Shown here: in pieces, positions 1,021 through 30,156 of the stretch
Position numbering within the stretch: the first letter of the stretch is position 1
Layout: every line of letters begins with the position of its first letter
NCBI GenBank assembly: GCA_043806035.1
Contig: JAZDHK010000023.1
Coordinates: forward strand, 21,877 to 85,876
DNA: 64,000 nucleotides
Direction: 5' to 3'
Source of the DNA: an archaeon
GTDB lineage: Archaea > Nanobdellota > Nanobdellia > Woesearchaeales > UBA9642
Notes under the pieces: model-generated
The model's database searches: none
What the model was told of the DNA's origin: nothing
What the model saw: the letters and a program-made list of their open reading frames with translations, nothing else
Translations under genes and position numbers: made by a program

Positions 1021-1551
1021 ATGAAAGGCTTCGAGCTCTCCGTCAACTTCCTCGTGGTGATTATTCTTGGCATCGCCGTGCTTGGCGGCGGCATCATGCT
1101 CATGTATAAAGTGTTCAATGCGAGCATGGACATCAGCACGAAGATCAGCGACCAGAACAGGGATGAGCTCAACTTGCTCATGAGCCAAGGCCAGCTCGTC
1201 GCCTGCCCCGTCTCCAAACAGGAAATACAAAAAGGAAAGACAGCAATTCTTCCGTTGGGCATTCTCAATAAGATAGGAGTGCCTGCCGAATTCACCATCG
1301 TTGTCGATGAGAATATACCCAACGTTGATGGAGCCACTTTCGGAAGCATTACGGGAGCGCATACGTCCTTCATTTCCGGACCGTACATGCTCGAGCACAA
1401 CAAAGACCAGACACTAGGCATAGGCATAGGGATAGACAGGACTGTTCCCAAAGGGACGTATCTGCTGGGAATTAACGTGACGTGCAACATATCTGCTGTC
1501 TGCACTCCCATCTACGATACGCCCAAGCGTGTGCAGATCGTCGTTACGTAA
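1021..1551 (+). CDS. second archaeal type IV pilin-like protein (class III signal peptide)
   Basis: The N-terminus is MKG|FELSVNFLVVIILGIAVLGGG. The mature part diverges from the pilin at 196..732. Confidence 0.6.
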   Translation: MKGFELSVNFLVVIILGIAVLGGGIMLMYKVFNASMDISTKISDQNRDELNLLMSQGQLVACPVSKQEIQKGKTAILPLGILNKIGVPAEFTIVVDENIPNVDGATFGSITGAHTSFISGPYMLEHNKDQTLGIGIGIDRTVPKGTYLLGINVTCNISAVCTPIYDTPKRVQIVVT

Positions 1552-7406: not shown

Positions 7407-8324
7407 TTAATAGCTTCCTGCTTTCTTCCCAGAAACGTACTCGTACGCTGCTTTCGCGGCAGTCGCACCAAAACCCGCGGCAGTAATGGTTTGCTTCTGG
7501 AAGACAGGCGTGATGTCTCCCGCAGCAAAAACGCCAGGGATGTTCGTCGCCTGTTTTCTATCAACGATGATGTGGCCTCGCTCATCACAAGGTATGCCGA
7601 GATTGCTAAATATTTTACTGTTCGGCTCGCTGCCTATCTCGATGAACAGACCGTCGAGCTTGAGTGTCTTCCCGTTATCAAGTTTTGCCCACTCCACATT
7701 TTTTGAGCCGCCAACTTCAAGAACGTTCGTTTTTGTGAGGACGACGAGTTTTGGATTATCCTTGATCCTGTCAAAATTGATCGGTTCTGCGCGGACGTTC
7801 TCTCCCCGATAGATGATGGTGACGTGCTTTGCCATAGTGAGTAATAGCTCTGCGGCAGTGACTGCTCCATCATTCCCGCCTACGACGCCGACGATTTTTC
7901 CTTTGTAGAATGCTGCATCGCACGTGGCACAGTACGCAATACCCCTTCCCGTGTATTCTTTCTCGCCAGGAATGTTGAGCTTTCTCTTGGCACTGCCTGC
8001 AGCAATGATGATGCTCTTCCCCAAGAATTCCTTCCCGCCTTCTGTCTTGACAGAAAAACCATTCTTTTTCTTGCCCACCTTTGTCACGCGATCAAAGACG
8101 ATGGGCACGTGCCAATGCTCCACCTGCTCCTTGAACTTTTGCATGAGCTCGATGCCGCTGATGCTCGTGAAGCCAGGATAGTTCTCGACGTTGTGCGCTT
8201 CTGTCAACGTCCCCCCATCCATGAAGCCGATGACGAGTGTCTTCAAATTATAGCGTGCGCTGTAGAGCGCCGCAGGATAACCTGCACTGCCCGTCCCGAT
8301 GATGATGACGTCATACGTGTCCAT
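7407..8324 (-). CDS. trxB: thioredoxin-disulfide reductase
   Basis: The FAD motif DVIIIGTGSAGYPAA and the redox-active CATC are present. The start is placed at MDTYD. Confidence 0.9.
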   Translation of the reverse strand: MDTYDVIIIGTGSAGYPAALYSARYNLKTLVIGFMDGGTLTEAHNVENYPGFTSISGIELMQKFKEQVEHWHVPIVFDRVTKVGKKKNGFSVKTEGGKEFLGKSIIIAAGSAKRKLNIPGEKEYTGRGIAYCATCDAAFYKGKIVGVVGGNDGAVTAAELLLTMAKHVTIIYRGENVRAEPINFDRIKDNPKLVVLTKTNVLEVGGSKNVEWAKLDNGKTLKLDGLFIEIGSEPNSKIFSNLGIPCDERGHIIVDRKQATNIPGVFAAGDITPVFQKQTITAAGFGATAAKAAYEYVSGKKAGSY

Positions 8325-8377
8325 GCTTGGAAACAACCGCCGAGCGTATTTAAATGTTATGGAGTGCTGACGTGAGG

Positions 8378-8500
8378 GGCCTTGTTGAAAAAGTCCACCT
8401 AGCGCAGTCATTCGAGCAGACGGCTATTGCGATTGCCCTCGAGACGGGCAGTGGTGAACCGTGCTGTACGGAGCGTGGACTAGAGACGTTCAACAAGGCC
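8378..8500 (+). mobile_element. MITE-like element copy A: 123 bp, 12-bp perfect TIR (GGCCTTGTTGAA/TTCAACAAGGCC), flanked by 9-bp direct repeat GACGTGAGG
   Basis: The same element occurs in reverse orientation at 29516..29638, flanked there by a different 9-bp duplication. Between the conserved flanks the 23-nt core differs entirely between the copies. An internal 7-bp helix (AGTCCAC/GTGGACT) is also present. Confidence 0.75.
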
Positions 8501-8554
8501 GACGTGAGGAACAAACTTTTTAAAGCATCGCGGAAGAGCAGCAGGAGAGGTGTT

Positions 8555-16217: not shown

Positions 16218-16318
16218 TTTCTCTTTTAAAAATATTACTGTTTTATATATTGTTATATACTCGTATAAGATTACGGTGCGACGAAACCATTATTAACTCT
16301 GTTGCTCTTTTTCAGTTT

Positions 16319-27926: not shown

Positions 27927-28461
27927 ACACCAGAAAAGCATGCTTGACCTTGCACGAAGAGCAATCATGGCCTATCCGAATAATGAACAGTTGAGGCTGC
28001 TCTATCAGGAACGGCACGATTTCGGCAGAGGTGGCGTGTTCGTGAGTGTCTACGTCGACAACGACTTGCGCGGATGCATCGGCAATCTCGAGCCTCTATC
28101 GTTGCAGGAAGGCATCATAGAAAACGCTATTCACGCAGCATACCACGACACAAGATTTTCACCCATAACAAAAAAAGAATTGCCCAGCATGAATGTGCAC
28201 ATCAATCTGCTCACCGAGCCAAAACCATACGCGTACAAGACGACGAAAGAGCTCCTGGAACGGATCAAGGGGGAAGGCGTCATCATCGAACGTAGAGGCA
28301 GGCGAGCGACCTTCCTGCCGAGTGTCTGGGAACAACTCCCTCTTTCTGAAGAATTCTTGAGTCATTTGTGCATGAAAGCAGGGCTGCCTGCACAGGATTG
28401 GAAGGAAAAAGGGTTGAGCGTCATGCTCTACCAGAGCGAGGAGTTCAGCGAACGTCCTTGA
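27904..28461 (+). CDS. amrA: AMMECR1 domain protein (AmmeMemoRadiSam system protein A)
   Basis: The LRGCIG signature is present. Confidence 0.85.
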   Translation: MPASHSREHQKSMLDLARRAIMAYPNNEQLRLLYQERHDFGRGGVFVSVYVDNDLRGCIGNLEPLSLQEGIIENAIHAAYHDTRFSPITKKELPSMNVHINLLTEPKPYAYKTTKELLERIKGEGVIIERRGRRATFLPSVWEQLPLSEEFLSHLCMKAGLPAQDWKEKGLSVMLYQSEEFSERP

Positions 28462-29137
28462 CTATTCGTTCCAACAAAGTTCGTCCTTGCTCGCCTAAGG
28501 GAATTTTCACTCGTCGCTCGTCATAGGGCACTTCTTGCTCTGTGAAAGGAAAGGTGAGCGGAATCTTCCATCGCTGCTGGTATTTCTTGTTCACATGCAT
28601 GCCTATCTGGAATGCCAGAAGATCTGCATAGTTGATGAGGGGAATGCTCTTGTCCCCGCCCGCATGCAGTTCGATGTTCTGCAGAGGAATCTTGAAGTTC
28701 AGGGCGTGCAAGTATTCTTTGATGAGCTGCTTGCTCACATATTCCTTGAGATAGAACATGTCGATGAACAGCACGGTCTTTTGTGAGTCATAGCCATTGA
28801 CGGTGACGAGATGTGCTATCGCTGCATGCTCGATGAGCTGTCTGCTGAACCTTCCTTCATTGGCACGCATCCAATGATACGTTTGCAATCCTTTCATCTC
28901 ATCGGGCCGAGGGAGCCGCGGAGCAGTCTCCAAAGAGCTGCCTGCACTCATGTGTGCATAAAATTCGGTAAGATGATCCCGCGCTTTTGGCAAGGCAGCA
29001 TATCCCTTGCTTTTTGTCAGTGTCTTGTCTTCAGTCACTGCAGCGACGACAGTGAGACTGTTCGTTCCGCTTCTGAGCGTGCTCTCATCTATGCCGATGT
29101 ACGTAAACGTCATGATTTCACGAGCTGGCTGAGGCAA
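28445..29137 (-). CDS. hypothetical protein (N-terminal IGIDES motif)
   Basis: The 230-aa ORF overlaps the upstream nuclease-like gene by 28 nt. Confidence 0.3.
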   Translation of the reverse strand: MPQPAREIMTFTYIGIDESTLRSGTNSLTVVAAVTEDKTLTKSKGYAALPKARDHLTEFYAHMSAGSSLETAPRLPRPDEMKGLQTYHWMRANEGRFSRQLIEHAAIAHLVTVNGYDSQKTVLFIDMFYLKEYVSKQLIKEYLHALNFKIPLQNIELHAGGDKSIPLINYADLLAFQIGMHVNKKYQQRWKIPLTFPFTEQEVPYDERRVKIPLGEQGRTLLERIVKDVR

Positions 29138-29481
29138 TACTGTCCGTACTGTTCTGTTCCCGGTGTGGACTTGTAATGCACGATCTTGAGACTGTCTGGC
29201 GTGCCGGTAACGTAGAATGCATGCACTTCATCATACGTATTGTGCAAGTATTTGATTGCTTTGTTGAGCTGCTCTTTTGCCTTCCATCGTTTATGATTGC
29301 TGCATTTCACTTCAAATACTAACGCTTTCCGTTCTGTGGTGCCGAGAAGGTCCATCTCTCCAGAAAGAGATGTCGTATTCGGAGGGTAGTTGAGCTTGTT
29401 GAGGATGCTTGTGCACAATCCCGATTGCTCAAGCAGCTGCTCGAGGCTGCTGACGAGGAGATCGTGCATGAACGTGTACAA
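29110..29481 (-). CDS. PD-(D/E)xK nuclease-fold protein resembling Holliday junction resolvase Hjc
   Basis: The pattern E14..D45..E57-V-K59 (GEMDLLG...ALVFEVKCS) has Hjc-like spacing, and the product is 123 aa. Confidence 0.4.
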   Translation of the reverse strand: MYTFMHDLLVSSLEQLLEQSGLCTSILNKLNYPPNTTSLSGEMDLLGTTERKALVFEVKCSNHKRWKAKEQLNKAIKYLHNTYDEVHAFYVTGTPDSLKIVHYKSTPGTEQYGQYCLSQLVKS

Positions 29482-29515
29482 TGTGCTTTCTCTTTATAAT
29501 TGTTGCGCTGCGTTG

Positions 29516-29638
29516 GGCCTTGTTGAACGTCTTCAGTCCACGCTCCGTACCGCAAGGAAAACAGCTGCGCGCCTCGAGGGCAATCGCAATAGCCGTCTGC
29601 TCGAATGACTGCGCTAGGTGGACTTTTTCAACAAGGCC
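29516..29638 (-). mobile_element. MITE-like element copy B (reverse orientation), flanked by 9-bp direct repeat GCTGCGTTG
   Basis: The TIRs and conserved flanks are identical to copy A, while the 23-nt core is different (GCGCGCAGCTGTTTTCCTTGCGG). Confidence 0.75.
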
Positions 29639-29691
29639 GCTGCGTTGTGAATCCGCAAGCTTTTTAAACAAATCGTCAGTTCTTTCGCTTC

Positions 29692-29862
29692 ATGGTAACC
29701 ATAAAATGCAGCTCAAGCCACGTCCCTATAACAAATGATTCAGGCAGTGCACGATTCCCCTGCCCCAACTGCGGAAAAACAGAGATCATACGCAGCCGAA
29801 GAGCGCGGGAAGTGGTCATGAAGTACACCTGTCCTGAGTGCGGCTTCGAAGGACCAAACTAG
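29692..29862 (+). CDS. small zinc-ribbon protein (COG2888-like, usually linked to aEF-1beta)
   Basis: The 56-aa product is MGTIK...CPNCGKTEIIRSRRAREVVMKYTCPECGFEGPN. It lies directly upstream of aEF-1beta, and it falls below the ORF-track length cutoff. Confidence 0.45.
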   Translation: MVTIKCSSSHVPITNDSGSARFPCPNCGKTEIIRSRRAREVVMKYTCPECGFEGPN

Positions 29863-29877
29863 AATCTCGGTGAATGT

Positions 29878-30156
29878 ATGGCAAAGGTTATTATCACACT
29901 CAAAATCATGCCAGCAAGTCCAGACACTGATCTGGACAAGCTCGAGCATGAAGTGAAAAAGCACATCGAGCACTTTGCCGGTGAAGGTGATATGAAAGTT
30001 GAGATCAATCCCATCGCCTTCGGCTTGAAAGAGCTCAGGATACTCTTCGTCGCTGACGAATCCAAAGGCGGCACGGACTCCTTGGAAGAGGAAATCGGCA
30101 AATTAGAAGATGTCAATTCTGTCGAAGTCGTCGATGTCAGACGGGCAATAGGCTAA
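29878..30156 (+). CDS. translation elongation factor aEF-1 beta
   Basis: The product is 92 aa and contains IKIMP...PIAFGLKEL...SVEVVDVRR. Confidence 0.85.
   Translation: MAKVIITLKIMPASPDTDLDKLEHEVKKHIEHFAGEGDMKVEINPIAFGLKELRILFVADESKGGTDSLEEEIGKLEDVNSVEVVDVRRAIG

Follow-up and report, generated by a model that had tools for sequence, protein, structure and literature searches.

A probable MITE with IS903-like ends at two divergent promoter regions of a DPANN archaeon

Introduction

IS903, IS903B and IS102, insertion sequences of the IS5 family, resemble the element reported here in their terminal GGC, their end sequence and their 9-bp target duplication. IS903B is flanked by direct target repeats of 9 bp (PMC9769513), and IS903 is listed with a 9-bp TSD and the target motif WTTYA-N9-TRAAW (PMC2577343 Table 1). 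IS903-group ISs in Paracoccus carry outward promoters (PMC3281130). Our IS903 reference end comes from a K. pneumoniae plasmid (L005), where the annotated IS903 is 1057 bp long and has 18-bp IRs, GGCTTTGTTGAATAAATC.

Modular MITE families such as Correia/NEMIS of Neisseria and BOX of pneumococci combine constant ends with discrete internal variant segments. The Correia TSD is TA. These families are like the element described below in that internal variation accompanies constant ends, which resembles the clustered differences between our two copies; their ends, TSDs and hosts, however, differ from those of our element.

MITEs occur at high density in DPANN genomes, including that of a Woesearchaeon (PMC11602168). 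Prokaryotic MITEs in general are short, non-coding, TIR-bounded, TSD-flanked, intergenic and non-autonomous, as is our element. In the available part of the census, however, elements are not classified by IS903-type ends, and our family was matched to no sequence listed there.

Here we describe a 123-bp element that is present twice in a 64-kb window, the whole stretch of DNA that we analysed. We conclude that it is very probably a non-autonomous MITE, and that a DDE transposase of the IS903 group (IS5 family), encoded elsewhere, gave rise to it or mobilised it. The IleRS encoded beside one copy has, after the identical MFH1174282.1, next-best homologues that are only ~55% identical (Woesearchaeota, Nanoarchaeota, Nanobdellota). 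Therefore, the host is a deep-branching DPANN archaeon without a close sequenced relative.

Results

Two copies with perfect TIRs and locus-specific TSDs

The segment 29507-29647 is exactly one TSD, the element and a second TSD, and direct reading gives the layout GCTGCGTTG / GGCCTTGTTGAA / 99 nt / TTCAACAAGGCC / GCTGCGTTG (Table 1). In this copy, copy B, the 12-bp TIRs are perfect and the two TSDs match at 9/9 positions. Copy A also has perfect 12-bp TIRs, and its TSD, GACGTGAGG, matches 9/9 on both sides and differs from that of copy B. When the two copies are compared, 112/123 positions are identical (91%; blastn E = 6e-41). Searched with 0 mismatches allowed, each 12-bp TIR has two sites in the window and no more (8378/8489 and 29516/29627), and a repeat finder paired the arms 8375-8500 and 29516-29641 as a 126-nt inverted repeat, 90% complementary and 21 kb apart.

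Table 1. Features of the two element copies and their surroundings (window coordinates)
Feature	Position	Strand	Remarks
MITE copy A with TSDs	8369-8509	-	GACGTGAGG 8369-8377; element 8378-8500, inverted relative to copy B; GACGTGAGG 8501-8509; between the thioredoxin-reductase (TrxR) and IleRS promoters
TATA ATTTAAAT, thioredoxin-reductase promoter	8348-8355	-	31 nt from ATG 8324
IleRS promoter AACAAACTTTTTAAA (TATA 8516-8524)	8510-8524	+	abuts right TSD of copy A; precedes TTG 8558
119-aa orphan protein, NCBI V1725_04190	29110-29469	-	D...ExK-like motif; left of copy B
BRE-like GCAACAA and TATA TTATAAA (29499-29493) of the 119-aa gene	29493-29506	-	BRE abuts left TSD; 30 nt from ATG 29469
Left TSD of copy B, GCTGCGTTG	29507-29515	.	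direct reading; length of 9 confirmed by TIR/TSD scan
MITE copy B, 123 bp	29516-29638	+	91% identical to copy A, inverted relative to it
Left TIR GGCCTTGTTGAA	29516-29527	+	0 mismatches; 11/12 against IS903 end GGCTTTGTTGAA
Variable segment, element positions 18-57	29533-29572	+	holds all 11 differences from copy A
Invariant half, ending in GACTTTTTCAACAAGGCC (right TIR with T5 run)	29574-29638	+	identical in copies A and B; 18-mer end also in L080 and L031
Right TIR (TTCAACAAGGCC on the + strand)	29627-29638	-	0 mismatches; reverse complement of left TIR
Right TSD of copy B, GCTGCGTTG	29639-29647	.	direct reading and TIR/TSD scan
TATA box CTTTTTAAA, Zn-ribbon/aEF-1beta operon	29660-29668	+	32 nt upstream of ATG 29692
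Zinc-ribbon protein, HVO_2753-like	29692-29862	+	PF07754, E = 1.2e-15; right of copy B
aEF-1beta	29878-30156	+	PF00736, E = 1.9e-21; right of copy B

The 64-kb window holds two copies, 21 kb apart. When the whole window was scanned for elements bounded by perfect TIRs (at least 10 bp long and separated by 40-800 bp) and flanked by a TSD of at least 5 bp, copies A and B were the only ones returned. By analytic calculation, a 12-bp TIR with a 9-bp TSD is expected by chance ~1e-5 times per window. The element is therefore real, far beyond chance. A first-pass annotation had placed a MITE at 29507-29647, with the TIRs of copy A, the reverse orientation and a different TSD. Our results bear this out: the 12-bp TIRs are perfect, the inverted copy is 91% identical, the 9-bp TSDs are locus-specific (GCTGCGTTG versus GACGTGAGG), and these two copies have neither coding capacity nor a transposase.

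The sequence comes from a metagenome-assembled genome, and the right-hand 65 nt are identical in A and B, where a short-k assembler could cross-connect the copies. A collapsed or chimeric repeat of this kind, or a phasing error, would then have produced the core differences between them. We consider such an artefact exceedingly unlikely, since matched TSDs stand on both sides of each copy. Had the assembly been misjoined or inverted across these inverted copies, which are 21 kb apart, GCTGCGTTG would be partnered by the reverse complement of GACGTGAGG. In addition, the variable segment lies 17-57 nt from the unique left flank, so that single reads tie the segment to its locus.

Substitutions between the copies cluster on one side

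Copies A and B differ by 11 substitutions (4 transitions and 7 transversions), at element positions 18, 19, 36, 40, 43, 44, 45, 48, 49, 54 and 57, and positions 59-123 show no difference. The clustering of the substitutions in a 40-nt stretch gave p ~3e-4 in a permutation test with the TIRs excluded, a value that rests on two copies. The first-pass annotation was right that the interiors differ. What it had described as a 23-nt core that differs, however, is not a replaced 23-mer: the changes extend over positions 18-57, and the 25-nt core matches at 16/25 positions between the copies. This level of core identity indicates divergence, not a swap to an unrelated block.

One-sided clustering of this kind is unlike simple neutral decay and counts against a plain picture of a decaying MITE. 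It may reflect the existence of two subfamilies, or the right half may have undergone gene conversion or be under constraint; two copies do not separate these sources. We also considered hairpin-templated (quasi-palindrome) correction and rejected it. Outside the TIRs, the two arms reach a complementarity of only ~30-36%, whichever register is taken, and at the variant sites complementarity is no higher in copy A than in copy B, although the MFE fold of copy A suggests otherwise.

Concentration of the A/B differences in one segment would also suit a gene for a small RNA, structured or guide, with a variable 23-nt core that pairs with a target. Both strands do fold better than shuffled controls (z -2.4 to -5.6), but much of the folding energy is given by the 12-bp TIR stem, which is present in any MITE. 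The first-pass annotation had hinted at a guide function and suggested a check of the cores for targets. In that check, neither core matched any other site on the two strands of the window when up to 3 mismatches were allowed (the window is without rRNA), so the hint found no backing. Rfam gave no match on the element at the gathering threshold or at E <= 1, and reading of the element sequence revealed no C/D-box motifs and no internal BRE/TATA. Moreover, cores that share 16/25 positions are diverged copies rather than distinct guides, and the locus-specific 9-bp TSDs point to arrival by transposition. An RNA gene is thus a very unlikely reading. In the window as a whole, Rfam at the gathering threshold returned no family and there is no tRNA; the sole Rfam match at E <= 1 was SNORD49 (E = 0.56), outside the element.

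Gene models that read through the element

Although in both copies each strand has one frame that crosses the element without a stop codon, the 123 bp have no coding capacity joined to conserved proteins. The deposited IleRS model MFH1174282.1 (1093 aa) starts at GTG 8372, within the TSD of copy A, and its first residues (MRGLVEKVH...) are translated from copy A. Taken at face value, this model would make the element coding sequence, an N-terminal extension of a neighbour protein. However, the 60-aa extension is absent from 24/24 of the closest IleRS homologues, which begin 3-5 residues before the YDFK motif, and it would sit upstream of the IleRS gene's own BRE/TATA (8510-8524). At copy B, this frame is not joined to any gene. 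We regard a coding role as vanishingly unlikely, and the deposited read-through of copy A is an annotation artefact. The true IleRS start is likely TTG 8558, downstream of the TATA at 8516-8524.

The other neighbour of copy A shows a similar over-extension. Its longest ORF (thioredoxin-reductase, 7407-8411, minus strand) runs 29 codons into copy A (8325-8411), and the start consistent with the TATA at 8348-8355 is ATG 8324. This extended ORF and the ORFs 29429-29671 and 29481-29738 at copy B result from frames that are open by chance through the element. The last two had already been called artefacts of the element, and we agree: they span two TATA boxes as well as the element, and their parts outside it are absent at copy A.

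The ends and TSD length point to the IS903 group

We compared the ends of the element with those of IS903. The IS903 end sequence was found at 100% identity in thousands of plasmids, under genes labelled 'IS5-like element IS903 family transposase'. At each end, the window element agrees with IS903 at 11/12 positions, and at the right end, GGCCTTGTTGAAAAAGTC, 15/18 positions agree. TIR sequence and TSD length, independently of each other, point to the IS903 group of the IS5 family. Position 4 is C in the window element, whereas IS903 has T. The window element also differs from IS903 in its length of 123 bp without a transposase gene, in an interior that is unrelated, and in its host, a DPANN archaeon rather than an enterobacterium. 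When the 64-kb window was searched by tblastn with the IS903 transposase, no IS903-like transposase was found, which counts against our reading of the element.

The insertion sites fit the IS903 target motif WTTYA-N9-TRAAW weakly, which also counts against it: copy B scores 7/10 and copy A 5/10, with ~3.5/10 expected by chance. The right flank of copy B, TGAAT, matches the IS903 target half-motif at 5/5. For the elements from other sources described below, the scores are 7/10 (L080), 3/10 (L001) and 3/10 (L002), against the same chance level of ~3.5/10.

Related ends in other genomes

We searched for the exact pattern TIR-N(85-115)-TIR. There was no match in GTDB representative genomes (a set without the host MAG) or in viral contigs. 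Four metagenome loci did match, and these are two distinct insertions, each found in two metagenomes in opposite orientation. The elements are 120 bp (L001/L003) and 121 bp (L002/L004) long, with ends GGCCTTGTTGAATAA(A/T)TC and 9-bp TSDs (9/9 and 8/9). A scan of genomes for the 18-mer end gave 118 loci, mostly single matches.

A Candidatus Micrarchaeota MAG (JAJZYD010000013.1; L080:6674-6730) carries a 57-bp element with the ends GGCTTTGTTGAT / GGCCTTGTTGAAAAAGTC. The right end is identical to that of the window element at 18/18 nt. This element has a perfect 9-bp TSD, CTTAATAAC (L080:6665-6739), and its insertion point immediately precedes ACAAACTTTAAAAAC, which is the BRE/TATA of the gene that follows. 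In a Candidatus Woesearchaeota MAG (CAYHOV010000017.1; L031:6789-6810), the end TTAAGACTTTTTCAACAAGGCC agrees with the end of L080 at all 22 nt and lies 15 nt upstream of the TATA box CTTTTAAAA. A left partner or matching TSD was not found around it, and this end may be a truncated element or a solo end.

The L001/L003, L002/L004 and L080 elements share the first 12 nt of the TIR with the window element and, like it, are small and intergenic with 9-bp TSDs. Their interiors, however, are unlike its interior. They are thus separate MITE families that share a transposase type and not copies of one element. No further copies of the 123-bp family were found in any sequence collection searched, and plasmids, phages and viral contigs gave no significant match to the element or its interior. 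A common recognition end and TSD length around unrelated interiors in several organisms are characteristic of MITEs with one type of transposase in common.

In the Chlamydiota MAG JBCDEZ01, and in no other genome that we examined, the end type occurs beside a transposase gene: next to GGCCTTGTTGAAAAAATC lies a gene with 36-37% identity to that of the IS903 transposase (L034, L105). The regions concerned are L034:1-382, L105:503-1094 and ~20 further contig ends, and most matches lie within a few hundred bases of the end of a contig. Its position beside an IS903-like transposase gene indicates that this end type belongs to real IS903-group insertion sequences. We also observe that the assembly of this Chlamydiota genome is fragmented by a multi-copy IS903-group IS with GGCCTTGTTGAAAAAATC ends.

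Three archaeal matches (L043:6769-6786, L090 and L119:5640-5657) were rejected as elements, since the matched sequence, GA(C/T)TTTTTCAACAAGGCC, is the coding motif DFFNKA in a conserved gene. The context of the motif in this archaeal gene is ...FV DFFNKA QPLT.. LPGLGKKHMW, and it yields false positives in scans for the TIR.

Insertion between divergent promoters

When the window was scanned for TATA-like motifs (CTTTWWAAA, TTTATAA and WTTTAAAW), these lay overwhelmingly in the ~9% of DNA that is intergenic, typically 27-32 nt upstream of start codons. This spacing indicates leaderless or short-leader archaeal promoters. The host promoter motif is also unusually uniform, with (A/G)A(C/T)AAA followed by CTTTWWAAA ~30 nt upstream of starts (for example at 16223, 22157, 34240, 43048, 45574, 55786 and 60005). 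Such uniformity implies mostly leaderless transcripts and helps to correct start codons in the host MAG.

At both copy A and copy B, the two flanking promoters of divergent genes are intact. When the element and one TSD are removed, ~15 nt are left between the two core promoters at each site, in a window that is ~91% coding. A TSD or element end adjoins a BRE/TATA with a gap of 0 nt in all four DPANN cases, namely copies A and B, L080 and L031, a pattern that we noticed post hoc. The intergenic regions of L080 and L031 measure 150-230 nt. These data hint at real targeting of the upstream promoter edge by insertions. It is improbable, in our judgement, that the full scenario holds, namely that IS903-group elements have been active in DPANN archaea up to now or until recently, prefer the upstream BRE/TATA edge, and have kept the invariant half, with its near-consensus TATA/oligo-T end, for promoter modulation or insulation.

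The same context bears on whether the MITE has been co-opted, with its invariant half as a putative weak promoter that points outward, as a terminator (oligo-T) or as an insulator between the divergent promoters. This reading would add to a MITE origin. The end of the invariant half, CTTTTTCAA, matches the local TATA consensus CTTTTTAAA at 8/9 positions, and outward promoters are known on the IS903-group ISs of Paracoccus (PMC3281130). Positions 59-123 are identical between the copies while positions 18-57 hold 11 changes, both copies lie between divergent BRE/TATA boxes, and an insertion abuts a BRE/TATA without a gap in each of the DPANN cases. However, both neighbour genes retain their own BRE/TATA at normal spacing, and a new promoter is unneeded. 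With two copies only, conservation is indistinguishable from recent common descent or gene conversion, and the window copies differ from L080/L031 in their orientation toward the abutting promoter. We judge co-option to be unlikely, and retain the view of the element as a probable IS903-group MITE.

Host and flanking genes

To the right of copy B, matches to PF07754 and PF00736 confirm the Zn-ribbon and aEF-1beta neighbours that the first-pass annotation had named there (Table 1). To the left lies V1725_04190, which it had called an Hjc-like nuclease. Among 5.8 billion proteins this protein matched only itself; it had no Pfam match at E <= 0.01 and no sequence match in the PDB. Residues 36-77 gave sub-threshold Pfam matches to Hjc (E = 0.045), Cas4 (0.047) and NERD (0.061). 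The Hjc-like label is not established by such matches, and a putative 'PD-(D/E)xK-like' label is plausible. The distance of 34 nt given between this gene's start and the element holds for a start at TTG 29481 only. ATG 29469, which agrees with the NCBI 119-aa model and with the TATA spacing, gives 46 nt.

Downstream of V1725_04190, a 230-aa gene (28445-29137, minus strand) shares 28 nt with it and likewise gave no Pfam match. The two may form a lineage-specific two-gene nuclease module. Elsewhere in the window, two paralogous small proteins (196-732 and 1021-1551, plus strand), whose N-termini resemble archaeal class III (pilin-type) signal peptides, are preceded by the units of a 190-nt direct repeat with 85% identity (1-190 and 774-963).

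Discussion

We propose the following course of events by analogy with the family. A transposase would bind the GGCCTTGTTGAA ends, and the 123-bp unit would be excised or copied and joined to 9-bp staggered target cuts, whose repair would leave the 9-bp direct repeat. Mobilisation would occur in trans, by an IS903-like DDE transposase. Both copies may have survived by landing in a ~15-bp spacer between divergent BRE/TATA boxes, which would leave promoters and genes intact. In a genome that is ~91% coding, such spacers would be among the few sites that tolerate a 132-bp insertion. Nothing suggests a cellular function for the element.

Recognising the element is mainly of practical use for the host genome. 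Spurious ORFs are removed, and the false 60-residue N-terminus of IleRS and a similar over-extension of thioredoxin-reductase are corrected. The matched 9-bp TSD pairs confirm that the contig was joined correctly across two inverted repeats.

MITEs have already been counted in the DPANN lineage (PMC11602168), and the window family is an added, IS903-type member. Mobile DNA is sparsely recorded in small-genome DPANN archaea, and an IS903-type MITE now joins that record. The same 12-18-bp transposase recognition end is found on elements of bacteria and of at least two DPANN lineages, which hints that IS903-group transposases are shared or exchanged across domains. Finally, placement of the element in ~15-bp spacers shows the scarcity of neutral DNA in such genomes.
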